Of a stretch of DNA of 64,000 nt, positions 1 to 12,206 are shown in pieces. Position 1 is the first letter of the stretch. Each line of letters begins with the position of its first letter. The notes under the pieces are model-generated. The model was not told where the DNA came from. It did not search any database and worked only from the letters and a program-made list of their open reading frames with translations. The DNA comes from a virus (Duplodnaviria > Caudoviricetes), in the IMG/VR virus record IMGVR_UViG_3300021431_000086, positions 1 to 64,000 of that record; one strand, given 5' to 3'. A program made the position numbers and the translations under genes.

Positions 1-62
1 GGAGGGTGTCGGGGTGTCGGGAGGGTGTCGGGGTGTCCTGATGATGGCGGGAGGGTGTCGGG
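1..62. repeat. G-rich 19-bp tandem repeat GGAGGGTGTCGGGGTGTCG (2 copies plus a partial copy at about 49-62)
   Basis: Seen directly at the window edge. Confidence 0.8.
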
Positions 63-401
63 CATATTAGCGACGGCAGCACACCCAGCGCACCCACCCG
101 ACCAGCCGAGCGAGGCGCGGGGTCTTCTTCGCGAATAGAAAGTGTTTTGAGAAAGGAAGGGTCGGTTGAAAACGTGTTTTATCGGGGTGGCCGACCATAA
201 AAAGCAAAGCCCGAAAACTGCGGGAAAACAGTTTGCGGGCTGAAAAGAATGATATGTTTTCTTTCTACGAAAACACTATGATGCTGGATATTTCACGCTG
301 AAAGAGTATTTTTTATTTCCCGTAGAAATAGCAGAAAGGCTTTTGCGACGCAAAAGAGAATTTCCTTCATTTCTTTTATTTCTGCGGGACAAAAAAAGTC
401 C

Positions 402-1301
402 TTACACTGCGGGGTACATCGGCGTTTCGGCTACCATCTCGTCGCCATCGTCCCAGGCGCGGCGCATCTGCCGCCACTTGGCGGCATCCATGTAGAGGGT
501 GACGTGGCCGGTGGTGGGGTCGGTGTAGGGCTGCAGGGTGGTATCGACACGGGCGAGCAGACGGGCATCGTCTTCGCAGACGGTGAAGCCGTCGTTCACG
601 CTGAAGGCTATCAGCCCGTCGGGGAAGAGGCGGTGAAAGCGGGTATAGCGGCCCCAGAGGTCCAGGCTGGTGTCGTCCCACTCAGCCCCTCCCCTGCCCT
701 CCCCTGTAGGGAGGGTGTCGCCTGTGCGCGTACCTTTCTTATTGGTTTTGATGGGTTTATCGTCTTGTGCATCGGGGTTTGTTGCATCGGTGTCGTCAGG
801 AATCACCTCGTAGGAACTGAGCACACCGGCCACGGAGAGGAGTTCCATGTTGATGCGGTTCACGTCGTCCTGAGTGATATGTCCGTATGCCTTGGATGCT
901 GGCTGGCAAAGGATGGACTCTTTCTTCCCGACCTTCCAGTTCAACACTCGCTCACAAAAGGTGTTGAGTTTAAAGTATTTGGAAATGCCGCGCCTGATAG
1001 GTTCAATGAGTGCAGGGTCATAGTCCACACCGCGAGTGCTGCTATAAGTCTGTTCGCTGCCAAAGGTGAGGACAGCCTGTCGCAAGTCATCGGCTATCTG
1101 CGGAAGAACTGCGTTCAGTTTCTCCAGATTGGCGGCAGAGAATTTGAGCGGTGTGCCCAGGCGGTTCGGTTTGTGGCGGAAACACCCATTGACGATGCCG
1201 ACGCTCACGCCCATCCTTCCTGCAAGCAGGGAGATAGTGAAGTCACGTTCCTTGAGATACTGATAGAGGACATCGGATGATACTTGTACTTTCTGTTCCA
1301 T
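402..1301 (-). CDS. HTH DNA-binding regulator with a C-terminal MutS domain I-like module
   Basis: N-terminal HTH-like segment (FTISLLAGRMGVSVGIVNGCFR). C-terminal YTRFHRLFPDGLIAFSVNDGFTVCEDDARLLARV resembles the MutS N-terminal pattern. Start moved to 1301, downstream of the -7 box at 1330-1337. Confidence 0.6.
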   Translation of the reverse strand: MEQKVQVSSDVLYQYLKERDFTISLLAGRMGVSVGIVNGCFRHKPNRLGTPLKFSAANLEKLNAVLPQIADDLRQAVLTFGSEQTYSSTRGVDYDPALIEPIRRGISKYFKLNTFCERVLNWKVGKKESILCQPASKAYGHITQDDVNRINMELLSVAGVLSSYEVIPDDTDATNPDAQDDKPIKTNKKGTRTGDTLPTGEGRGGAEWDDTSLDLWGRYTRFHRLFPDGLIAFSVNDGFTVCEDDARLLARVDTTLQPYTDPTTGHVTLYMDAAKWRQMRRAWDDGDEMVAETPMYPAV

Positions 1302-1329
1302 GTTGTAGCTTTGGTTTAGAATTTCGGCA

Positions 1330-1337
1330 CAAAGGTA
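1330..1337 (-). promoter_or_regulatory. Bacteroidetes housekeeping-sigma -7 box (TACCTTTG) for the regulator gene
   Basis: Matches TAnnTTTG, about 30 nt upstream of the ATG. Confidence 0.7.
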
Positions 1338-1481
1338 TGGTTTTTTTTCAAACTCTCCAAACAAATCCCGAATTATTTTCATTGGCTGTGGAAAAATCCG
1401 TGAAATCTGTGTAATCTGTGGTCATATTTCAATCCACAATGCACAATTCATAATTCATAATGGTTAGGGGTTGCAAGGAAA

Positions 1482-1513
1482 CAGCCCATCGGCGCGGTGT
1501 GGCCGGTGGGCTG
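1482..1513 (-). terminator. GC-rich hairpin downstream of the HU-like gene
   Basis: CAGCCCATCGG/CCGGTGGGCTG inverted repeat with a weak U tract. Confidence 0.45.
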
Positions 1514-1794
1514 CGGGTGCGTGGCTTTGTCCCCCGGAAATTATTTCTGTGGTTTCCGTGGTTTCTGTGTGAGAGGATGCTCAGGGTGCGAGGGGGTCGG
1601 TGTCGGTGCCGGAGCCTATCTTAGTTAAATGTCGTTAAAGATGTGTGACAAAATGGGATGTTTTGCCCTACGGGTTGTTTTGTCACTGCTTTCAGGGTGT
1701 TTTGTTACTGCATTTGGCAGGATGGAGGCTCTTTTCTCACACAATTACGGCACGCAACTTTCAACTTTCCGCTCGGCTATGCCGCTTGGTTCGT

Positions 1795-2319
1795 CTAAGA
1801 ACTTTCAACTTCCTTGGGCAGGCGGACGAGGTGGATGCCTTTCTGGTTAGGCTGGTAGCGGAGCCCTTTCTTCTTGCGCAGGGGTGGGTCGTGGGGGTCG
1901 TGGACGAAGGAGCGGCGGGTGGGGTCGAAGCGGTGGGCCTCGATTTCGCGGCGCAGGTTGCGGGTGGGGGCGAACTTCAGGCGCTGTGTGGGCGGCAGGG
2001 TGCGCAGCTCGGGGGTGTCGCGCTTGTAGGTGTAGAGGCGCTGACGCTCGGGGATGTCGATGAGGGCGAAGGTGCCGAAGGACTCGACGGGTACGCAGCC
2101 GCTACCCTCGGTGAGCTGGTAGCGGATTTCGTCGAATACGGCAGGCAGGACCTGCTCGACGGTGGCGCGGCAGATGCCGGAGCGCTTCACCACTTGGGCG
2201 ATGAAGTGCTGCTTGTAGTCAGATGGACGGGAGTTGTTCATAAAATTAAAGACCCCTCCCCAGCCCTCCGTGATAGAAGGGAGTGGCTGCGCGGTGAAGG
2301 GATTTGTTTTTGTTGTCAT
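1795..2319 (-). CDS. HU/IHF-family DNA-binding protein (start may be 2241)
   Basis: FIAQVVKRSGICRATVEQVL...VPVESFGTF...RLKFAPTRNLRREI fits the HU-fold pattern. Confidence 0.8.
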   Translation of the reverse strand: MTTKTNPFTAQPLPSITEGWGGVFNFMNNSRPSDYKQHFIAQVVKRSGICRATVEQVLPAVFDEIRYQLTEGSGCVPVESFGTFALIDIPERQRLYTYKRDTPELRTLPPTQRLKFAPTRNLRREIEAHRFDPTRRSFVHDPHDPPLRKKKGLRYQPNQKGIHLVRLPKEVESS

Positions 2320-2378
2320 TGAATTATAGTTTCATTGGGGATAGGAAAGCCTCCCATTACGGGGAGGTTGGGATGGGG

Positions 2379-2678
2379 CTATACTCTTAGGATGAAGTCG
2401 TCGGCGCGGAGGATGCAGCTGTCGCGGAGGCGGCGTGTCTGTCCGCTGGCGGTGAACTGCACGAGACGTGAGGGGTAGGCACCGGGGCCATCGGTATATA
2501 CGGCGAGGGTGACGCACTCTTCGCCCAGGATGCAGTCGCCGTTGGAGGCGGCTACATACCAGACGCGGAAGGGGATGCGCTCGGCGACCTGCTCGTATTT
2601 ACCATTTGGTAATTTACGATTTACCATTTGGCTGCGCTCGGCGACGCGGCGCAGTTCGGATAAAGCTAATGTTTTCAT
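2379..2678 (-). CDS. Conserved Bacteroidales phage protein
   Basis: C-terminal SGQTRRLRDSCILRADD resembles a small protein usually encoded next to the portal in Bacteroides phages (from recollection). Confidence 0.55.
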   Translation of the reverse strand: MKTLALSELRRVAERSQMVNRKLPNGKYEQVAERIPFRVWYVAASNGDCILGEECVTLAVYTDGPGAYPSRLVQFTASGQTRRLRDSCILRADDFILRV

Positions 2679-2731
2679 TTTTATGGCACGCAGGAATAAA
2701 GGAAATCACGGAAATTTAGATTTTTCACTTT

Positions 2732-3271
2732 TCACTTAAAAAGTCTGAGCCACCAGGCGCGTTTCTTCAGCAGCCAGACGGCGGCGGCGAGGGCGAGGGC
2801 GATGAGCATGATGTTGGCGAGATGGAGGCGGGCTTGCTGCCAGCGGGTGAGTTTCTTTTCCACGAACTTCTCCACGGGATAGGGACGTGGGATGGTGTCG
2901 TGGGTGGCGATGTAGATGGAGTCGTGATGCCAGCGGTCGCGGTACTGGGTGTGCCAGCGGTTGACTTCGAGAAACACGGTGTCGCCGCGCTGATGCTCGT
3001 GGACGTAGATGCTGTCATGGAGCATGATGCTGTCGCGCTGGAGACGTGTGATAGTGAGGGTGTCGGTGCGGACGGTCTCGACCAGTACGGTCTTGGTCTT
3101 ACAGCCGGTGAGGCAGGCGCAAAGCAAGATGAACAGGATGGCGGCTACGACATAAGTGAGACAGCCGTAGAGGCATGACCGGGTGCAGACATCCCGACGT
3201 TCCTCGGGGGTGAGGTCGTCCATATCGGGAAGGTAGGGCACGACGTCGTAAAGTGGGTCGTAATGGTTCAT
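2732..3271 (-). CDS. Putative spanin-like lipoprotein (lysis)
   Basis: Hydrophobic segment plus lipobox LTGC, repeated (R/H)D(T/S) motifs and a C-terminal TM helix. Start MNHYD follows a late-promoter motif. Confidence 0.6.
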   Translation of the reverse strand: MNHYDPLYDVVPYLPDMDDLTPEERRDVCTRSCLYGCLTYVVAAILFILLCACLTGCKTKTVLVETVRTDTLTITRLQRDSIMLHDSIYVHEHQRGDTVFLEVNRWHTQYRDRWHHDSIYIATHDTIPRPYPVEKFVEKKLTRWQQARLHLANIMLIALALAAAVWLLKKRAWWLRLFK

Positions 3272-3286
3272 ACGCTGTGGTTTTAC

Positions 3287-3327
3287 TGCGAAAATAAGGC
3301 AGAAGGGGTGTTGGAAGCAAGGGCAAG
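3287..3327 (-). promoter_or_regulatory. Phage late-promoter motif (TTGCCCTTG-N21-TATTTTCGCA)
   Basis: One of 7 copies, upstream of the spanin-like gene. Confidence 0.6.
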
Positions 3328-3397
3328 AGACGATTAGAGGAACGAGAGAGGGCGGAAGCCGAGTGTGGTTGCAGCCCTCTGCTTGCATCGGGTAGTA

Positions 3398-3553
3398 ACA
3401 AAAAGGCCACCGCCCGATGAAAGCTACAACAGGGGGCGGTGGCGAGGCACTATGAAAGCAGCCTATGTAAAGCGGCGCAGACGCAGGGGGGGAGATGGTG
3501 GTGGGGCATCCTGCGTTTTAGGGTGGATGGGAAACTGCACCGCTATGCTTTCG
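3398..3553 (-). ncRNA. Candidate antisense sRNA of about 155 nt
   Basis: TATCTTTG -7 box at 3559-3566, nested stems, intrinsic terminator GCCACCGCCC/GGGCGGTGGC plus U tract, and no convincing ORF. Confidence 0.6.
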
Positions 3554-3649
3554 CACTGCAAAGATACGGAGATTTAACGACACGGACAATGGGTGTGCTC
3601 ACTTTAATTGGCGCGACGATTTCGTGAAGTGGCGCAAAAGTCTGGTAAC

Positions 3650-4100
3650 GTGTTGAATATTAGGAGGTTTCGGTGACGAAAAATTTTTTCTCTTGAATCG
3701 GCGGCCGAAAAAAGTTACCGCATAAGTATTTGATTTTCAGCGGTTTTCGGAGAAAAGTGCGGTAAATTTGAAGTAACTAAGATATTTTTGCAATAATTTT
3801 TTATTGAAAAGTAATCAACAATAAATATATTATATACTATAACTATTTAATTATCAACTTCTTTTCTTATTTTAATTTCCTATTTATATATATATTGGGG
3901 TTTGGGGAATTTGTCGTATGTATGTAACAGTTTAAATGAATTTATTTAAGAGAGAAAAGTTTGGGCGATTTTGGGCCTTTATGGACAAGGAGCGCACAAA
4001 TTAGGCATTTTGGCACTGATTATCAACTGGTTAAAAATCAGCCATAGACTTCAAAGGTATGTAAAACAATGGACTATTTGGGGTTTTATGGACGAGAGAA
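3650..4100. other. AT-rich non-coding region with inverted repeats (TTACCGCA/TGCGGTAA); possible second origin or control region
   Basis: Markedly AT-rich by eye, with no ORF. Confidence 0.4.
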
Positions 4101-4175
4101 AAATTGGCACGGGTTGGCATGGATTTCAAAATAAATTGCGTATATTTGTACCGTGCAACTAAATTGTGTTTGTGT

Positions 4176-4793
4176 ATGTCAGTAAGGAGTTACAAGTTAC
4201 CTGCGGTGGTGTGGCTGCGGATGACGAACTACATGCACGGGTGGATGCAATGGGAACTGGGAGGTGAGTCTTGGATCAGGGAACAGCGCGTGGTGAGCGT
4301 GCAGCATTTGGAGGGCGCAAGAGAGGTGCTTAGGATGGAAACGACGGATGACACGCTGGAGCCTGGTGTGGTGGGGAATGCCATGTCGGACAAGCGGAAG
4401 AACTGCATAGAGGCTGGACTGGCGCTGGACGCTGTGGTCACGGAACGTATGTATGGAGTGAACAAGGAAGGACTGAAGGCATTCGTGCCCATCGAGTGCC
4501 CGAAGATGTGCCTGACACGGAACGGGGTTCTCAGACCGTGGACGCTGAACGTAAGTCTGGGTAGGCGGCAGGCGGTGGCGTTGCTGGTACTGCTTAAGCG
4601 CGAGTTCTGGGCTGCGGTGGAGGAGTTTAACCAGGAGTATGCCCGCATGCACGGGGGCAAGAAATACCCAGCCATAAGCATGATAGAGGCGTTCTGCGAA
4701 AAGACTGGGACCGATGATGTGTACGCGGAAGCCATGCGGAGGGAATGGCAGAGGCGCGTGAAACGCGTTACGTGCGCATACTCTCACCCTTGA
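4176..4793 (+). CDS. Conserved phage protein; candidate late-transcription activator
   Basis: Follows a TATATTTG -7 box at 4141-4148 and has a basic helical C-terminus (AMRREWQRRVKR). The function is an inference. Confidence 0.45.
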   Translation: MSVRSYKLPAVVWLRMTNYMHGWMQWELGGESWIREQRVVSVQHLEGAREVLRMETTDDTLEPGVVGNAMSDKRKNCIEAGLALDAVVTERMYGVNKEGLKAFVPIECPKMCLTRNGVLRPWTLNVSLGRRQAVALLVLLKREFWAAVEEFNQEYARMHGGKKYPAISMIEAFCEKTGTDDVYAEAMRREWQRRVKRVTCAYSHP

Positions 4794-5460
4794 AAACAAC
4801 TACCTTGGTGGTGGCGCGAAGACGGTCGAGGGTACGAAGGCCGTATCGTTCCTCGATGGAGGGGATGCGGTGCGGCGCAGGGTCGCCATGATGACCGTGG
4901 GGACCGTCCTTGGAGAGGCGTTGCATATTGGTGCGGAGGTTGGTGGTGATGATGAGCAGTGTGCCTGTGTGCTCGGCGCGGTCAACGAGTTCGCAGAACG
5001 GGTGGCGTCGGTTATACTTGACAAAGGCCTCTGGGGCCTCGGTGCCCAGATCGTCGATAATGATGATGTGGCCGGGCTGACAGTATTCGAGAAGCGTGTC
5101 TATCTGGGCGTTCATCTCCACAGCAGTGAGCAAACGGCACCCCACGCCGAAGTACTGGGAGAAGAGGATGGGCAAAATACGGGTGCAAATGAGGGTCTTC
5201 CCCACCCCGCATGGTCCGACACAGATGAGACCACGACTCTGATTGTCATGTAGCCACCGGGCCACATCAACATAGCAGGGCAGCCACTTGGCAGTGTCGG
5301 TACCCAAGATGGTGCGCAGTCCGGCCCACAGGATTTTAGTGGGGTCTGACTTGGGGAACTGTATGTGGAAGCGTGTGGGGGCTGTGGCTTCTTGCTCCCC
5401 ACCGGCACGCTGCACGGCGGCAGAGAACCATTGTTCGTATGCGTTCGGTTGCTGTTCCAT
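4768..5460 (-). CDS. DnaC/IstB-like AAA+ ATPase (helicase loader)
   Basis: Walker A GPCGVGKT, Walker B IIIDDLGTE, IITTNL and RYGLRTLDRL. Confidence 0.85.
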   Translation of the reverse strand: MEQQPNAYEQWFSAAVQRAGGEQEATAPTRFHIQFPKSDPTKILWAGLRTILGTDTAKWLPCYVDVARWLHDNQSRGLICVGPCGVGKTLICTRILPILFSQYFGVGCRLLTAVEMNAQIDTLLEYCQPGHIIIIDDLGTEAPEAFVKYNRRHPFCELVDRAEHTGTLLIITTNLRTNMQRLSKDGPHGHHGDPAPHRIPSIEERYGLRTLDRLRATTKVVVFKGESMRT

Positions 5461-5468
5461 AGTTGTAG

Positions 5469-6920
5469 CTAAAAGGTTTCCATATCTGAATAATTATCGG
5501 GGGCAGATACCGGAGTGTCCTTGACTTCCTCGGAAGGGGCGGAGCCGCGCTGCAGGGGCAGTTCCTTCTCGAAGAAATTGTTAAGGCATCGGACGGCCCA
5601 ATGTTGTACGTTGTCCTTGGGGGCGGCAGTGTTGTCATCGACAATCTGCTGGAGTTTCTGCAGCAGTATGTCGTGGTCGCCTGGTTGGAGGCGGCGGATG
5701 AAATCGCCCGACTGTCGGGCGGTGAGGGCAAGACGTTCCTGCATGAGACGTTTGATTTCTATTTCCTTGGCGGCCGTTTCCTTGTCCTTGTAGAGTTCGC
5801 GCCCGAGGTCGAAGATAGTGAGGGTAAATTCCACTTGCATGGGTACTTTACCTTTCTGTCGTCCGTCGGCAAAGATGGCGCGGTAGTCGAAGGTGAAGTC
5901 GGCAATCTCACGGGCAGAGAGGTCGTCGAGCTCTTTCTTTGCCTGTGCGAGATAGCGCTTGGCAAACTCGGAGTAGTATGCGTACTTCTCGCGGGCGCGG
6001 TCGGCGGCGCGGTCGATGTATTGCTTCTGATCGCTCTTGGGGAGTTTGTCCCATGCCTTACCGTCAGCCTTGGCGGCCTTGGCTGCCAGAGTTTCCACTT
6101 CTTCACCGTTGATAACTTTGCCATCTTTGGAATGGAAGAGGCCGCAGACGTCGCGTACTTCCATGTAGTCGGCGCGGAAGGTGATGCGCCCAATGGTGCG
6201 TGTGGTGCCGTCGGGCAACTGCCCGGTGAGTTCCTGCATCTCGTCTTTCTTGATGCCGCGCCACTTGGAGAGCCACTTGTAGAGGCGGTTGGCGGTGGCG
6301 GTCTTGGTATGACGGGTGGCAGGGAAGTAGAACTGGGTGTAGCCCTGGTCGGTGAGGAAGAAGTTGTGCTGCAGGATTTCGCGGCGGATGCGTATCTTCA
6401 CCTCGTTGCGCTTCAGGCTGTTGCCCCGGACGGTGCGCTTCTCCCCTGTCTTGGGGTCAGTGATTTCCTGCTGCTCGTATTCCTCGATGACGTCCATCAG
6501 ACTGGTAGTGAGCACGCCGTCGTCAGTATGCACCTCGGCTACGATCTTGACGAGGTTCTTCAGCATCTCGCGCACTTCGCCGTAGTGCTTGGGCGTGATG
6601 CCGGGGAGGTCGCGGAAGCGGATGGTGGCCACAAAGTCACCCTCCTGCTGCACCTTGTTGGCACGGTCGGCAGTGACGAGGTAGGCATCCTCGGTGTTGA
6701 AGGGAAGCATGAGCTGCGTGGCCTGCTGCTGATGGTTCTCGCGCCGCTTGGCGGCGGCATAAAAGGGTTGGAGCGACCATACGAGTTCGTCCATTGCCCG
6801 TTCTGAGTAGAGCGTTGGTGTCATGCGCAGGTCGGTAATCTGGTTGGGCTGCGTGGAAAGGGTTTTCCCGTCTTTGTCGAAAACGATGTCGGCAGCCTGT
6901 TTCTTTGGCTTTCGTACCAT
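5469..6920 (-). CDS. Plasmid-type replication initiator (Rep_3/RepB-like)
   Basis: QPNQIT N-terminus, GYTQFY, RLYKWLSKWR and YSEFAKRYLAQAKKELD motifs. Lies next to the iteron array. Confidence 0.8.
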   Translation of the reverse strand: MVRKPKKQAADIVFDKDGKTLSTQPNQITDLRMTPTLYSERAMDELVWSLQPFYAAAKRRENHQQQATQLMLPFNTEDAYLVTADRANKVQQEGDFVATIRFRDLPGITPKHYGEVREMLKNLVKIVAEVHTDDGVLTTSLMDVIEEYEQQEITDPKTGEKRTVRGNSLKRNEVKIRIRREILQHNFFLTDQGYTQFYFPATRHTKTATANRLYKWLSKWRGIKKDEMQELTGQLPDGTTRTIGRITFRADYMEVRDVCGLFHSKDGKVINGEEVETLAAKAAKADGKAWDKLPKSDQKQYIDRAADRAREKYAYYSEFAKRYLAQAKKELDDLSAREIADFTFDYRAIFADGRQKGKVPMQVEFTLTIFDLGRELYKDKETAAKEIEIKRLMQERLALTARQSGDFIRRLQPGDHDILLQKLQQIVDDNTAAPKDNVQHWAVRCLNNFFEKELPLQRGSAPSEEVKDTPVSAPDNYSDMETF

Positions 6921-7029
6921 AGTGAAAATATTGTTGTAGCTATCGAGTGCAAAGTAAACGATTTATTCTGAAATGTGCAAACTTTTTTAAAAAAATCTTT
7001 CTTTGAATATCAATAATTTATAAAATCGA

Positions 7030-7345
7030 GTGTCCCGATTTGTCGAAATTAGTGTTCCGATTTGTCGAACAGAGAGGGGCGATTTGCCGAAAAACAGAAG
7101 GCTGCGGAGTGTCCCGATTTGTCGAAACCGACTATCCCGAATTTGTCGAAAGCGCTGTAATATAAGCACATCCCCGATTTGTCGAAAATCGCCACGTGTT
7201 TGACGAAAGCATCCCGAATCTGTCGAAATCGGCTTTGTTGTATTCCCATGTCTGTCGAAACAAACGCCCCGATTTGTCGAAACCTACCCCACGTTTGTCG
7301 AAGAAATCCCCGTATTTGTCGAGGATTCCCCCGTATTTGTCGAAA
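7030..7345 (+). repeat. Iteron array: about 13 direct copies of CCCGATTTGTCGAAA
   Basis: Copies near 7030, 7052, 7076, 7109, 7134, 7171, 7196, 7211, 7243, 7266, 7288, 7308 and 7329, mostly 21-22 bp apart. Confidence 0.9.
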
Positions 7346-7766
7346 AATATTTTTGTATTTTATTGTATTTCAAATGGTTGTGCTTTGCTTTAGGTGCCTA
7401 TATACTCTTTCTTATAGACTCTTCTCTTGTATGCTTCTCTTTCGTATTCATTTCTTTATATACTTAAATAAGAATCAGAAAGATTTTTTTTGAGTTTTTA
7501 ATTTTAAGAAGGAAACCTGTTTTATTGTTACGACCCGACCTATCCCCCTACCCCCTTCCCTACCCTGCTGATGAAAGGTTATGGGTTAGAGGTTATAGTT
7601 CAGGGGGGTATGAGGCGTGATAACTTTTTCGACAAATCGGGGCATTCCTCGCGACGCGTGCGCGGAGGTTACGTGCGCGTATGTATCGCATCTGCGATGG
7701 GGTGGTAACATTTTCGACAAAACGGGACGGTCGTAACTTTTCGGGTAGTTTTCGACAAATGGGGGA
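7346..7766. promoter_or_regulatory. Origin core: AT-rich unwinding region followed by three inverted iterons (about 7628, 7712, 7750)
   Basis: AT-rich from 7346 to 7530. TTCGACAAAnnGGG copies point back toward the main array. Confidence 0.75.
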
Positions 7767-7811
7767 TTTTATTACGACGGGAAGTCTATACCCTACTCTA
7801 CTCTGGTAGGC

Positions 7812-7851
7812 AAAAGAAAACCGCCAGTCGGCGCGGTGGCTGGCTGGCGGT
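7812..7851 (-). terminator. Intrinsic terminator of the par operon
   Basis: ACCGCCAGTCGGC/GCTGGCTGGCGGT stem, followed by TTTTCTTTT on the minus strand. Confidence 0.7.
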
Positions 7852-7877
7852 GGTTTGATTTGTCGGCAATTCGCTGT

Positions 7878-8516
7878 TTAGTCCTTCAGGTACTTGTTGC
7901 AGATTTCCTTAAATTCCAATTGGCTGATGATGCGGATGTCGCGGCCTTCGGCGCGGAGAGATTCCACCTCGGAGAGTTTGGAGGGTCCGACCTTGTTGCC
8001 CATGACGAACACCTGCATGGTGCGCGAGACGCTGCGGTTGAGTTTGGCACCGAGGCGCTGGATGGCTTCGGCCACTTGGTCACGCTCCATGTTAATCTGC
8101 TCATAGGTGCCGGACATAACGGCGATCTTTCCGTAGAGGGGATTGGACGGGTCGGCACCGTCCTTCACCTGTTCGAGATAGCGGCGGTCGATTTGGCCGT
8201 GACGCTCAACCTTCGGAGCTGGGAAGGCGGCGGCTCCGTCTGGCGGACCGACAGGCGCTCTGCGAGGGGTGTTCCCTACCCTGCTGCGCAGAGCTTCGAG
8301 TTCGGCCTGGGCTTCGCTGTGGCGTATCCATCCGTCGAACACATCGTTGTCGGGGAACATGTTGTCCTGGGCGAGGTATTCGCCGAGGGTGGTGCGGGCT
8401 TCGTTAATGCGCTGTAGGGCGGCATCGTAACATTCGTTGGCGATGAGCCGCGTGGCAGAATAGAGGCTTTCCAGAGCCTCGCTAACCTTGGTGTAGTCGT
8501 GTCTGAATTGTTGCAT
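7878..8516 (-). CDS. BRCT-domain protein
   Basis: NPLYGKIAVMSG...RDQVAEAIQRLGAKLNRSVSRTMQVFVMGNKVGPSKL...IISQLEF. Confidence 0.85.
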   Translation of the reverse strand: MQQFRHDYTKVSEALESLYSATRLIANECYDAALQRINEARTTLGEYLAQDNMFPDNDVFDGWIRHSEAQAELEALRSRVGNTPRRAPVGPPDGAAAFPAPKVERHGQIDRRYLEQVKDGADPSNPLYGKIAVMSGTYEQINMERDQVAEAIQRLGAKLNRSVSRTMQVFVMGNKVGPSKLSEVESLRAEGRDIRIISQLEFKEICNKYLKD

Positions 8517-8536
8517 GATTGTCTAATTCTAATTGA

Positions 8537-8980
8537 CTATTTCTTTTCGTAGGTTGTGGTGAGCAGGGCGGCCATGTCGCGGAAGTGCTGGGCGTCGGCG
8601 TCGGAGATTTGCCCGGCACGGTGCAGGCCTTCGACGATGAAGAGGTAGAGGGCGCGGTGCTTGGGGGTGTCGGTGACGGTGCAGTAGCGTTGCAGGGCGA
8701 TGAACACTTCCTTGGGCATGATGGTGGTGGCTTTCTTGGTAGGCAGCAGGCCCTCCCCTGCCCTCCCTTGCGGGGAGGTGGTAGATACCGCTGCTGAAGG
8801 CGATGAAGATTCCTCTGCCCCACCGTCTTGCGAAGGCATGGGCGATGGCGTTTCGGTTGTTGGAGACTGAGGTGGATTTTCGTTATTGATGCCTGCCACG
8901 GGGATGCTTTCGGCACTGGCAAGTTCGGCATCGAGGCGGTCGTTGAGGGAACGGCGGCGGGGTTGTTCTTTCTTCTTCAT
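8537..8980 (-). CDS. Putative centromere-binding protein (RHH, type Ib partition)
   Basis: Small gene after parA, with a disordered N-terminus and C-terminal KKATTIMPKEVFIALQRYC...RALYLFIVEGL. Confidence 0.6.
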   Translation of the reverse strand: MKKKEQPRRRSLNDRLDAELASAESIPVAGINNENPPQSPTTETPSPMPSQDGGAEESSSPSAAVSTTSPQGRAGEGLLPTKKATTIMPKEVFIALQRYCTVTDTPKHRALYLFIVEGLHRAGQISDADAQHFRDMAALLTTTYEKK

Positions 8981-8989
8981 GTTCTTTTA

Positions 8990-9075
8990 TTATTACGTTA
9001 TTTCGGCATTTCGATATTTCGTGTTTTTTTATTCTGCAACCGCACAACTGCATAATTACACAGCCGCACGGTTGT
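8990..9075. repeat. 8-bp-period repeats between parA and its partner (TATTTCG; GCAACCGC type)
   Basis: Seen directly. Same unit as the large upstream array. Confidence 0.6.
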
Positions 9076-9076
9076 T

Positions 9077-9943
9077 TTACTTTCCCCACCTTTTGAGGTA
9101 TTCGGTGGCGAGCAGGATGAAGTCTTCGGCTGCACGGCTGCGTCCGTGGCGGTAGGAGAAGATGTCGTGACAGACGCCGGGTTGGGGGTCGAAGTCGCGG
9201 TCCTGAGAACTGGGCACATCGTTGGTACGGGAGATGGTTGTCTGGAATACGTCGCCCTCTTCGCGAAGCATTTCCTCTAAGCTCTTGGCAGAGTTGAGCC
9301 GGGCATCCTTCTTTGTGAGCAGCACGCCATGGATTTGCAGCGTGGGATTGCTGACTTTCTTTATCTTCAGAATTTTGCCGATTGTCTTGACGTAGCCATC
9401 GACGGCCAGGGGTTCCAGTTCCACGGGGATGATGATGCCGTCGGCGGCGCAGATAACATTGACCGTGACGCGCGACATGGCGGGCTGGGTGTCGATGAAG
9501 ATGAAGTCGAAACTGCTCTCCCACTCCGTGAGACCTTCGCCGGTGTGGTCGTCGATAGGTTCGGCGAAGAGTGACTTCAGCACGCGAACGGGGTCGGTGA
9601 CGTCGGCGGAGTTGAGGTGTACATCGGCATCCTCCATACGTGGCGAGGATGGCGTGTAGTAGAGTCCGATGTCGTTGCGATAGACGGGGATGTTCTGCCC
9701 GAGGCAGATGGCATTGAAGATGGTGGGTTCGCCAGGTTCGGTGCGCGTACCCTCGCGCTGCGTGTCCCACCCCACGGAGAGGGAGAGGTTGCACTGTGGG
9801 TCGGTGTCGATGACCAGTACGCGGTAGCCGCGCCGCATGATGGCCGACGCCAGGTTCAGTACTGTGGTGGTTTTTCCTGCCCCACCCTTGTTGTTGCTCA
9901 CGGCCACGATGTGCCGGAGGCGGGTTTCTTTCTTCTTACTCAT
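9077..9943 (-). CDS. parA: ParA/Soj family partition ATPase
   Basis: NNKGGAGKTT, VLVIDTDPQCNLS and FDFIFIDTQP. Confidence 0.95.
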   Translation of the reverse strand: MSKKKETRLRHIVAVSNNKGGAGKTTTVLNLASAIMRRGYRVLVIDTDPQCNLSLSVGWDTQREGTRTEPGEPTIFNAICLGQNIPVYRNDIGLYYTPSSPRMEDADVHLNSADVTDPVRVLKSLFAEPIDDHTGEGLTEWESSFDFIFIDTQPAMSRVTVNVICAADGIIIPVELEPLAVDGYVKTIGKILKIKKVSNPTLQIHGVLLTKKDARLNSAKSLEEMLREEGDVFQTTISRTNDVPSSQDRDFDPQPGVCHDIFSYRHGRSRAAEDFILLATEYLKRWGK

Positions 9944-9974
9944 GTTGTTGTAGCTTTATATTTTTATAATAATG

Positions 9975-10470
9975 TATGGTTTCTGCGAATGTGCGGTTAT
10001 GTGGTCGCAGAGCTACGCGGTTGTGTGGTTGTGTAATTACTTGGCTGCGTGAACGTGCGACTACACGATTGTGTTTCTCTGCAACTTTGCATCTCTGTGG
10101 TTGTGCGGTTGTATGGTTGCTTATTCGTACATTATGGAAAATGTGCATTCCTGCGGTTGTGCAACCGCGCAACTGTGCATTTTTGCCAGTGTGCTGTATG
10201 TTATTTACATAACTGCACGATTGCCCGACTGCACGACCGTGTGGGTATGTGACCGCGCGACCGCCAAAACGGACGGTTGTGTGAATGTGTAGTTGTGCGG
10301 TTGCATGGTTGCACAAATACACAATCAACGACGCACAATACAGCACATTGTCCCCGACGAGGGAGAAATTAGAATATACCATAATGATGGTTTTCTGTTG
10401 TAGCTGCTGCAAAGGTATGAAGAATTTTGCAACCGCACAACTTTGTAACCGCAAAAATGTGCGGTACATG
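9975..10470. repeat. Centromere (parS/parC)-like array of degenerate 8-bp repeats (GTGCGGTT / GCAACCGC) in both orientations
   Basis: Dozens of copies upstream of parA, overlapping its -7 box at 10410-10417. Confidence 0.7.
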
Positions 10471-10492
10471 TTGTAAAACATATAATGAGGAC

Positions 10493-10586
10493 ACCCTTGG
10501 CTTCGTTGAGCGAAGTTTACACCTCGGTTTTCCACTTTTGTGCTTGATGTCCGCCCTTGGCTTCGCCGAGCGCAGTTAGCACCTCT
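10493..10586 (+). repeat. Two imperfect direct repeats of about 32 bp (CCCTTGGCTTCGyyGAGCGmAGTT...CACCTC)
   Basis: Copies at about 10494 and 10554. Confidence 0.65.
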
Positions 10587-10594
10587 CGTTTTGT

Positions 10595-10632
10595 TTGCCC
10601 TTGACCTTGAAACCCGGTACATGTATATTGCA
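10595..10632 (+). promoter_or_regulatory. Phage late-promoter motif (TTGCCCTTG-N20-TATATTGCA)
   Basis: Upstream of the MazG-Mom-amidase-terminase operon. Confidence 0.7.
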
Positions 10633-10646
10633 CGAAAAAACAAAAT

Positions 10647-11009
10647 ATGGAACTGAACGAGTATCAACAGCGGGCGATGGGAACGTGTTTGCCGTCGTGC
10701 CGGAACTTCTCTTACATGATGCTGAACCTCGTGGGTGAGGTGGGCGAGTTTGCGGGAAAGGTAGCGAAGGCCATCAGGAAACAGGAGGCTGCGATTGACC
10801 GCAACAGTCTGCTGACGGAAAGCCGCCATGTGATGACGGACGAGGAAATCACGGAACTTCGGAAGGAGGCGGGTGATGTGCTGTGGCAACTCAGTGGACT
10901 GTGCCGTGTGATGGGCTGGGCGTTGGAGGATGTGGCGGGGGAGAATCTGGCGAAGTTGGCAGATAGGAAGAGTAGGGGAGTGGTTGACGGGAGCGGGGAC
11001 GAAAGGTAG
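10647..11009 (+). CDS. MazG-like nucleotide pyrophosphohydrolase
   Basis: NEYQ, LVGEVGE, KEAGDVLWQ, NLAKLADR and GSGDER motifs. Confidence 0.9.
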   Translation: MELNEYQQRAMGTCLPSCRNFSYMMLNLVGEVGEFAGKVAKAIRKQEAAIDRNSLLTESRHVMTDEEITELRKEAGDVLWQLSGLCRVMGWALEDVAGENLAKLADRKSRGVVDGSGDER

Positions 11010-11089
11010 TTGAGAGTTCTTGAACAAGCCAAGCGCCCCTACGGGCCGAGTGGAGAGTTGAAAATTTGGAAATGAAAAGTGAAAATATA

Positions 11090-11494
11090 ATGGTGACTGA
11101 GAAGGAAAAGAGGCATGACTTGGCACTGAGGGCCATTGAGGGTCTGCGTGCGGCGGCGGTGGAGATTGTGAATCTGTTTGCGGAGAAACATGGACTGCCG
11201 AGGTATGACGACCGGGACACGTATTTCGTGGATAAGTTCTGCAACACGTGTATGTTCGGGGACTATGCCTTCGGGATGCAGACGATGATTGAGGACCTGA
11301 CGGGCGACCTGCCGGAGGAGGAACTGATGCGGTGGTACGATTACACCTGTGATTACATGGAGACGTTCGGGTCGTTGGACGGTTGTCCGGACTTCCGGGA
11401 GTGGAACCATGGTGCGTCGCGTTTGGAGCTTGGGCCGATAATGGAGAAGAAGAGGGAACTGGAGAGGATGATTGCACAAGTGAAAGCCTTCTGA
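11090..11494 (+). CDS. Hypothetical phage protein
   Basis: ORF within the operon, with matching codon usage. Confidence 0.7.
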   Translation: MVTEKEKRHDLALRAIEGLRAAAVEIVNLFAEKHGLPRYDDRDTYFVDKFCNTCMFGDYAFGMQTMIEDLTGDLPEEELMRWYDYTCDYMETFGSLDGCPDFREWNHGASRLELGPIMEKKRELERMIAQVKAF

Positions 11495-11550
11495 GTGAAG
11501 AATGAAGAGTGAGGAATGAAGAATAAAAATTAAAAATAAAACTTACGATT

Positions 11551-11832
11551 ATGAAACAGATTGACAGGGAGAAATTTCAAAAGAAGCGGGAGCGGGTGAG
11601 ACTGCAGTTCAGCATGACGTTTTTCGGGAAGAACAACAACATGAGCCTGGCGTGCAGAATCAACGACAAACCGCAGACCCTGGAGCGTATGACCGACGAA
11701 GACCATCTGCTGCTGTGGCAGTTGCTCAATAGTGCGCTGGGAGCACAGGCCAAGGAGATGTTGAAGAGAGACCTGCTGCCGGACGAATTGGCGAAGATAT
11801 ACAGGGACGCTGCGCAAGTGAAGAGTGAATAG
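11551..11832 (+). CDS. Hypothetical phage protein
   Basis: ORF with an A-rich leader. Confidence 0.7.
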   Translation: MKQIDREKFQKKRERVRLQFSMTFFGKNNNMSLACRINDKPQTLERMTDEDHLLLWQLLNSALGAQAKEMLKRDLLPDELAKIYRDAAQVKSE

Positions 11833-11969
11833 TGAAAAAATAGAGTTACCGCAGAGAAATGGAGAGCGCAGAAAGGTTTTATAACTAAGATTTCGCAGAT
11901 TGCACAGATTCCAATATCTACATGTTTCTGCGGTTTCTGCGGGACATAAAAACAACGGATTACACGGAC

Positions 11970-12206
11970 ATGAGCCACAGAAAATACCGCATACCTTTTA
12001 AGCCTTCCTGCTGGAATTGCCGGAGGTTAAAAAAGTCGAAACGCGAGATGGATGTCAGCGATGACGGAGGGGCTGTCAGTATAAGCGCACCTTCTGTTAT
12101 GGATGCGTTGGCTGGGTATTACTGCGACAACTACTGGTTTGGCGATAAGCCTGATAAGGATAGGCTTTTGTGCGGAGGTCGAGAGTATCAATCTGTTTAT
12201 AACTAA
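11970..12206 (+). CDS. Small Cys-rich hypothetical protein
   Basis: CWNC...C...C pattern. Confidence 0.55.
   Translation: MSHRKYRIPFKPSCWNCRRLKKSKREMDVSDDGGAVSISAPSVMDALAGYYCDNYWFGDKPDKDRLLCGGREYQSVYN

Follow-up and report, generated by a model that had tools for sequence, protein, structure and literature searches.

A candidate trans-encoded antisense RNA in a rumen Bacteroidales phage-plasmid, predicted to pair with the leaders of rep, parA and a regulator gene

The 64,000-nt window analysed here carries, next to a probable replication origin, a short minus-strand unit that we read as the gene of a trans-encoded antisense small RNA (sRNA) repressing rep, parA and a regulator gene; we put the probability of this reading at roughly two in three. 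Pairing between the RNA and its target leaders in general, whether it results in repression or in some other outcome at the RNA level, is likely on the comparative evidence, and the system of RNA and boxes itself is, as judged from the related elements, real, conserved and co-evolving. A trans-acting sRNA had been proposed in a first-pass annotation of the window, and that reading is now supported by the enrichment of the target motif, by the co-variation of loop and leaders, and by a co-varying stem that surrounds a fixed loop. The other version offered there, an RNA-binding protein plus a decoy, is rejected, since what the sRNA contains is the complementary sequence and not the box itself.

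The window is one end of a 125.8-kb contig (C50) in a 3.14-Mb metagenome-assembled genome (MAG) of 99 contigs, and represents an element of ~126 kb from a rumen Bacteroidales. By its sequence relationships the element is a phage-plasmid, since its relatives, on contigs of 110–140 kb, encode a tape-measure protein, an S49 prohead protease and an endolysin. A megablast search of positions 1–12,000 of the window against phage and plasmid collections returned no match. A total of 63 Rep homologues were collected, with identities of 49–99% (most of them 64–82%). The related loci used for comparison, denoted here by L numbers, were those with usable flanks from Rep homologues 64–82% identical, on rumen phage-plasmids of ~110–140 kb; the contigs came from rumen and gut metagenomes and from Bacteroidales MAGs.

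The two conserved targets of the maintenance module are rep (5469–6920, minus strand), which encodes a Rep3/RepB-type initiator (PF01051), and parA (9077–9943, minus strand; PF13614/CbiA/ParA). The module also has an AAA+/IstB-like loader gene of 230 codons with its ATG at 5460. The regulator gene (402–1301, minus strand, ATG at 1301) encodes a protein of 299 aa, from a family that gave no Pfam or PHROG match. Directly upstream of the sRNA promoter there is an AT-rich, repeat-bearing intergenic region (3570–4080), read from the sequence, and GATAATCAGCGAGTTA-like repeats are common to the related loci at the equivalent position; this region is probably the replication origin. A convergent ORF stands between the sRNA unit and the rep–loader operon. 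In every relative, an ORF of ~200–230 aa (window 4119–4793, plus strand), convergent with the loader gene, was called between loader and origin, and the alternative ORF on the minus strand of the window (4197–4799) is probably spurious. In L023, L026, L027, L028 and L038 the AAA+ part of the loader is joined to a DnaA_N domain (PF11638), which is missing from the shorter, 230-aa loader of the window.

The sRNA unit spans 3397–3566 on the minus strand and consists of a promoter box, ~115 nt of intervening sequence, a GC stem with an 18-nt loop, and a U tract. All of these features had been listed in the first-pass annotation, and all are present in the sequence at the coordinates it gave. The −7 promoter box, TATCTTTG (3559–3566), is of the TAnnTTTG type, which is the promoter consensus of Bacteroidota (PMC7366714). 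The predicted RNA is ~155 nt long (3397–3553), its 5′ end being placed by the promoter box and its 3′ end by the U tract. The 5′ body (3450–3545) forms a long rod hairpin (GCGGUGCAG...CGCAGG / CCUGCGUCUGCGCCGC) and is an interchangeable module, as described below. It is followed by the terminator hairpin (3406–3443; covariance model R1), which has a 10-bp, GC-rich stem in which GCCACCGCCC (3434–3443) pairs with GGGCGGTGGC (3406–3415), closing the 18-nt loop CCUGUUGUAGCUUUCAUC (3416–3433). The loop contains the putative seed GUUGUAGCU (3422–3430), the complement of AGCUACAAC, with a core that is kept in the relatives. The U tract of the intrinsic terminator occupies 3397–3405. Folded as a 162-nt RNA, the unit had a predicted energy of −59.4 kcal/mol (z = −4.8 relative to shuffled sequences), and the loop core was mostly unpaired in the predicted fold. 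No Rfam model matched anywhere in the 64-kb window at gathering score, and a search of positions 3300–4200 at E ≤ 5 gave only a chance miRNA match. A small hairpin is found directly 5′ of the terminator hairpin (3445–3470, minus strand), with equivalents in most relatives; it often reads GGAUG...CAUCC or AGAUGC...GCAUCU, so that its opposite strand resembles a conserved “GATG”.

We considered the possibility that the unit is the leader of the next gene, called at 2732–3388 on the minus strand, which would then start 12 nt past the terminator. This was rejected: homologues align from Met40, which places the start of the gene not at 3388 but at 3271, behind a near-consensus promoter box of its own, and the sRNA unit thus stands alone. 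With its most likely ATG at 3271, the gene encodes 179 aa. Members of its family combine an LxGC that resembles a lipobox with a hydrophobic helix at the C terminus, as in a lipoprotein-like membrane protein, and gave no Pfam or PHROG match.

The exact motif AGCTACAAC occurs six times in the 64-kb window, compared to an expectation of 0.28, and six or more copies were seen in none of 100 shuffled sequences. Five of the copies are on the minus strand before start codons, while the remaining one forms the strand opposite the 18-nt loop. The motif count and the enrichment at start codons, which the first-pass annotation had proposed as a check, are thus far from random. Variants of AGCTACAAC with one mismatch occurred in the window at chance level only. 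The regulator box (1302–1310) abuts the ATG at 1301 and is shared by homologous regulators. The loader box (5462–5470) is intercistronic, overlapping the rep stop codon and ending 1 nt before the ATG at 5460. The rep leader box (6933–6941), found in nearly all relatives, is 12 nt from the ATG at 6920, just after a near-consensus promoter. Two boxes belong to the parA operon: one at the 5′ end of the transcript (10397–10405), 4 nt after the promoter box TACCTTTG (10410–10417) and 14 nt before the first gene, and a second (9947–9955), intercistronic and 3 nt before the parA ATG at 9943. The latter has no promoter box nearby and therefore lies inside the operon transcript. The open frames behind the boxes have 299 (regulator), 230 (loader), 483 (rep), 288 (parA) and 148 codons (first gene of the parA operon).

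Uninterrupted pairing with the loop is possible over 12 nt for the regulator, 9 nt for the loader, 10 nt for rep, 12 nt for parA and 11 nt for the 5′ box of the parA operon; these values, recomputed here, are the same as those of the earlier annotation. The predicted duplexes between loop and boxes range from −14 to −19 kcal/mol, compared to −8.6 ± 2.9 kcal/mol for random 37-mers from the window. Counts of exact boxes were preferred to a ranking of the start regions on C50 by duplex energy, which was noisy because of GC-rich flanks and crude start calls. In the whole assembly there are 39 copies of AGCTACAAC, seven of which are on C50. Of the 32 copies outside C50, 31 are in long open frames, 24 read Ser-Tyr-Asn, and none precedes a clear gene start; two copies, on C23 and C56, were ambiguous by the frame test, with a context that looks coding. 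The 9-mer AGCTACAAC also occurs within the catalytic core of the 10-23 DNAzyme, which was obtained by in-vitro selection. Literature matches for the string mostly concern this DNAzyme, which we judged to be a coincidence.

All 19 related loci that reach far enough contain exactly one such hairpin, 2–3 kb downstream of rep, and covariance model R1 finds one copy per element with scores of 44–63 bits. In the related loci the hairpin is followed on the rep-sense strand by a T-rich run, which is weak in L009, L017 and L036. The stem arms vary among elements (GCCACCGCCC, GCGUCGUCG, AGCACCACCACC, GCGUCGCUGGCCA), yet the pairing is kept: two-sided changes were found in 8 of the 11 base pairs, and the observed covariation score was matched in none of 500 shuffles. 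The fraction of stem cells that are paired is 88.6%, compared to ~37% when the partners are slid by one or two columns and 59–65% at three. The loop, in contrast to its stem, has a core, GUUGUA(G/A)C, that is invariant in the 16 aligned hairpins and is also present in L017, L036 and L038. Loop lengths of 13–26 nt across the family are atypical of plain terminators.

Of 17 related loci, 15 have a strict TAnnTTTG box 73–230 nt before the loop core, and no conserved ORF covers the unit on either strand in these loci. The remainder of the unit is variable. The rod body is present in the window element and in L009, L017, L020, L023 and L025; L018 and L019 have a tRNA-Met in its place, and in L004, L010 and L011 there is little or no body. 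Since only the hairpin is conserved across the units, the seed hairpin is presumably the functional part. A DNA search with the sRNA region against the genomes of 40 relatives gave no match. Among 151 genomes of the host family, covariance model R1 matched in only two, both of which contain the element (one, to judge from matching coordinates, is apparently the genome with L018); four weak matches (28–33 bits) corresponded to plain terminators without the loop core. In L018 (13445–13520) and L019 (13097–13170) the seed hairpin follows the tRNA-Met gene and shares its promoter, so that the predicted regulator would be a tRNA 3′-trailer RNA in these two elements; the window has no tRNA.

The box recurs in three homologous classes of target, namely rep, parA and a regulator family of ~170–300 aa. 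The regulon proposed in the first-pass annotation thus holds across the family for rep, parA and the regulator, but not for the loader, whose box was seen only here and in the 99% identical twin L002. In the regulator genes of L010, L017, L020 and L024 (~170 aa) the box is 1–20 nt before the ATG, and the arrangement of promoter plus box before parA is also found in L005, L018, L022, L024 and L027. The 32 leader boxes that entered the permutation test all have the same sense as the downstream gene, and none of the 32 lies closer than 5 nt to the −7 box, from which it follows that all boxes are transcribed. About 19 boxes begin near +1, at a spacing of 5–7 nt (a count that includes a few loci in which the hairpin is off the contig), and the remaining boxes abut the ATG or sit at intercistronic junctions. 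At the mRNA 5′ ends of L004 rep and of L018, L020 and L024 parA, the box is ~60 nt from the ATG. Some of these long leaders have a hairpin and a T-rich run after the box.

In five rep leaders the box is presented in a 10-nt hairpin loop on a stem of 4–5 bp (L012, 1205–1260; L016, 7050–7110; L023, 9945–10000; L025, 9945–10000; L037, 9940–10000). These stems co-vary (GGACG/CGTCC, GAACG/CGTTC, GGCG/CGCC, GGUA/UGCC), and near the ATG the same leaders have another, degenerate copy of the box (AAAGCUACAC; AAAGCTACAC), which suggests a two-step binding in which a kissing interaction would be followed by linear pairing. Kissing-loop layouts are typical of antisense control in plasmids. A co-varying kissing-loop target of this kind, as predicted from the leader sequences, makes sense only at the RNA level. 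Across all boxes taken together, flanking stems of at least 4 bp were not enriched (26%, compared to a background of 20%). A second antisense copy, GTTGTAAC, was observed in L027 (13790–13810) and L028 (13778–13800), where it abuts the TATCTTTG box of the next gene, ~50 nt past the terminator; a read-through RNA might use this copy as another seed, or the copy might be a site that acts at the DNA level.

Loop and leaders change together. Twelve elements have GCU in the loop, and their leader boxes are almost always AGCUACAAC (AGC). The loops of L005, L020, L023 and L025 have GCA, matched by UGC in leaders of L005, L020 and L025; the corresponding UGCUACAAC is found in the rep leaders of L005, L020 and L025 and in the regulator leader of L020. 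The loops of L026, L027 and L028 have AAC, for which the leaders have GUU, with GUUACAAC in five of six boxes, and L014, a sister of L028, also has GUUACAAC in its rep leader. When loops were permuted among loci, the identity of each box to its own loop exceeded that to foreign loops with p = 0.002 for the core and p = 5e-5 for the two adjacent positions. The co-variation that the first-pass annotation proposed to look for is present as three matched alleles. Own-locus complementarity was only marginal in the distal flanks (p = 0.08), and the selected duplex is, by this analysis, ~10–11 nt. On the Rep tree, sister elements differ in their alleles (L020, GCA, and L026, AAC; L005, GCA, and L006 and L036, GCU), which shows that the concerted changes have been recent and repeated. 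Such a series of alleles suggests that related elements living in one host have been selected to avoid regulating each other.

According to the mechanism that we favour, an RNA of ~155 nt would be made beside the origin as a stand-alone transcript, from the TAnnTTTG promoter to the intrinsic terminator. Its terminator loop would expose GUUGUAGCU and pair over ~9–12 nt with the leader boxes AGCUACAAC, of which the parA operon has two and rep, the loader and the regulator have one each. The RNA would be constitutive, with a level that tracks gene dosage. Pairing would lower the expression of the targets in one of three ways: 30S binding to the short leaders without a Shine-Dalgarno sequence would be blocked, the mRNA would become less stable, or there would be attenuation. 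Since the box lies ~60 nt from the ATG in several relatives, occlusion of the ribosome has no precedence over the other two, and for those leaders (L004 rep; L018, L020 and L024 parA) decay or attenuation is the likelier outcome. Because the dose of the sRNA would follow copy number, replication would come under negative feedback and the levels of partition proteins and regulator would be coupled to copy number. The matched alleles of seed and box probably decide the cross-regulation among related elements, as incompatibility or immunity.

Co-variation does not separate pairing of RNA from recognition of DNA, because the strand opposite the loop carries the box itself, and mismatched pairs of loop and box were too few for counting the G-U intermediates that bear on this distinction. 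We therefore considered whether the box, over 9–11 bp, might be an asymmetric operator in double-stranded DNA, bound by an element-encoded repressor that shuts off the promoters of rep, parA and its own gene, with the loop copy as an inverted operator. Parallels to such an arrangement would be P1 with its monovalent C1 operators or RK2 with its KorA/KorB regulon, and rep, par and regulator genes make up a regulon typical of global plasmid repressors. The position of ~19 boxes over +1, at a fixed 5–7 nt after the −7 box, would suit an operator, as would the joint shift of alleles at all sites, which is expected from a changed protein specificity, and for the additional inverted copy next to a promoter in L027 and L028 a DNA site is the better fit. 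However, an operator leaves unexplained why the inverted copy is found in the loop of a co-varying, GC-rich hairpin followed by a T run in 19 of 19 elements. For an antisense RNA this is as expected, the lone inverted copy being always the loop of a co-varying hairpin that ends a small unit, the remainder of which is free to change. Operators would also overlap the core promoter and/or occur in either orientation, whereas a box on or ahead of a −7 box was never seen and the 32 scored ones all run in the sense direction, the inverted copy of L027 and L028 being the only partial exception. Moreover, there are intercistronic boxes without a promoter (parA at 9947 and loader at 5462), and some of the rep-leader boxes are inside the small co-varying RNA hairpin loops. 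On balance, we consider the operator unlikely.

Somewhat less probable still is that the pairing is real but that the sRNA activates or protects its targets, or attenuates their transcription as the P4 CI RNA does, and thereby serves a decision between lysogeny and lytic growth instead of copy number. Direct occlusion of the ribosome is indeed unlikely for the many boxes that form the first 9 nt of an mRNA, up to ~60 nt from the ATG, and the hairpin and T-rich run 3′ of the box in some long leaders would be in keeping with attenuation. On the other hand, the regulator, loader and parA boxes of the window and the regulator boxes of L017 and L020 are at most 3 nt from the ATG, the classic position for occlusion, and an sRNA gene adjacent to the origin, with rep as a universal target, would fit a negative feedback that depends on dose. 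A mere coincidence, in which the hairpin does no more than terminate transcription and the leader boxes form a cis element of their own (for instance an initial-transcribed sequence or a translation enhancer), or in which the plus-strand copy heads a small ORF (3453–3627), is very improbable: the plus strand of the window does read box, 21 nt and ATG, but it has no promoter box, no ORF follows the hairpin on that strand in 14 of 17 relatives, the conserved-looking GATG is one arm of the small pre-terminator hairpin, and loops of 13–26 nt, with an invariant core that changes together with the boxes, are unusual for terminators. The plus-strand ORF was rejected on the same grounds.

No description of such a system was found in the literature on the motif or on the sRNAs of phage-plasmids. 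Among known RNAs of phage-plasmids, the closest is the c4 antisense RNA of P1 and P7 (immI), which is related to the CI RNA of P4 and to a small processed RNA of N15. Like the predicted RNA, c4 is small and structured, with short exposed segments that pair in trans with leader or ribosome-binding boxes, and matched alleles of RNA and target tell related elements apart, as in the heteroimmunity of P1 and P7. However, c4 is processed from the operon transcript of its own targets, acts through two segments and controls icd/ant, whereas the unit described here would be transcribed alone and would use a single seed in its terminator loop on rep, parA and the regulator in other operons. Whereas c4 comes from the leader of an icd/antirepressor operon and shares a transcript with its boxes, the unit has a promoter and terminator of its own beside the origin. 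The C4 and isrK models of Rfam did not match it, and its host phylum, unlike the hosts of c4, has no Shine-Dalgarno sequences.

The second comparison is with the counter-transcribed RNAs that control plasmid copy number (R1 CopA, ColE1 RNA I, ColE2 RNA I, pT181 RNA I and the repABC ctRNA). These are constitutive, their dose follows copy number, and they recognise their targets through hairpin loops, in which point changes create new specificity groups; in some relatives of our element a similar loop–loop recognition of the rep leader is predicted. The present allele series likewise parallels both the c4 heteroimmunity of P1 and P7 and the loop mutants of ColE1 and R1. Genes for counter-transcribed RNAs, however, face the rep leader on the other strand, with full complementarity between RNA and leader. 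The unit is neither on the opposite strand nor overlapping the rep leader; its gene is on the same strand as rep, 2.0–3.5 kb downstream, and the RNA would have several targets, including partition genes, sharing ~9–12 nt with each. This bears out the difference from cis-encoded antisense RNAs that was noted in the first-pass annotation. By these comparisons the unit would function like the c4, P4 CI and N15 RNAs and like the plasmid counter-transcripts, yet it appears to be a member of neither group.

What the unit has in common with the counter-transcribed RNAs is a predicted recognition loop complementary to the targets, with an invariant, mostly unpaired core on co-varying stems. With trans-acting sRNAs it shares an independent non-coding unit with promoter and terminator, as read from its sequence signals. 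The conserved seed, the complementary sites and the compensatory evolution are also those of a trans-acting sRNA, and the same would be predicted for an inverted DNA operator. GibS, a trans-encoded sRNA of Bacteroides, has a TAnnTTTG promoter and an intrinsic terminator of its own and pairs at initiation regions (PMC7366714), as is predicted here, and it shows that sRNAs are used at such regions in a phylum without Shine-Dalgarno sequences and Hfq. GibS itself is chromosomal and metabolic and uses a long, unstructured 5′ seed of 30–50 nt (PMC7366714), whereas the present seed would be 9–11 nt in the terminator loop of an RNA from a mobile element. A RepX/FinP-like sRNA is reported to affect, in trans, how a plasmid that shares its host replicates (PMC8136791), and resembles our candidate as a small plasmid-borne RNA that controls copy number via a non-overlapping target; that RNA is reportedly enterobacterial, depends on FinO and has a single target on another plasmid.

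A trans-encoded seed RNA with multiple targets, tying together rep, partition and a regulator, would differ from the classical cis-antisense solution. Phage-plasmids are abundant in gut and rumen Bacteroidales, and we know of no RNA-based control of replication described in Bacteroidota, where mRNAs have no Shine-Dalgarno sequence and Hfq is missing. If the proposal is true, the alleles would amount to a predictor of incompatibility among these phage-plasmids that can be read from the sequence. The idea is directly testable, as the natural alleles (GCU/AGC, GCA/UGC and AAC/GUU) are ready-made compensatory mutants. More tentatively, and with a good deal of doubt, the RNA may be the master copy-number and maintenance RNA of a whole family of Bacteroidota phage-plasmids, acting on boxes of the rep, parA and regulator mRNAs that are either 5′-terminal or in kissing loops, with at least three alleles serving as an incompatibility or immunity code for coexistence, and with a seed hairpin so portable that whatever RNA lies upstream can drive it, a phage tRNA-Met with its 3′ trailer among them.

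Assembled contigs from one gut metatranscriptome sample matched the window exactly at 920–1138 and 4671–5127, with no match over 3397–3566; contigs of this kind cannot show small RNAs, transcript ends or strand. The first of the matched stretches is in the regulator gene and the second in the region of the loader and the convergent ORF. The element, or its DNA, was thus present in that RNA library.
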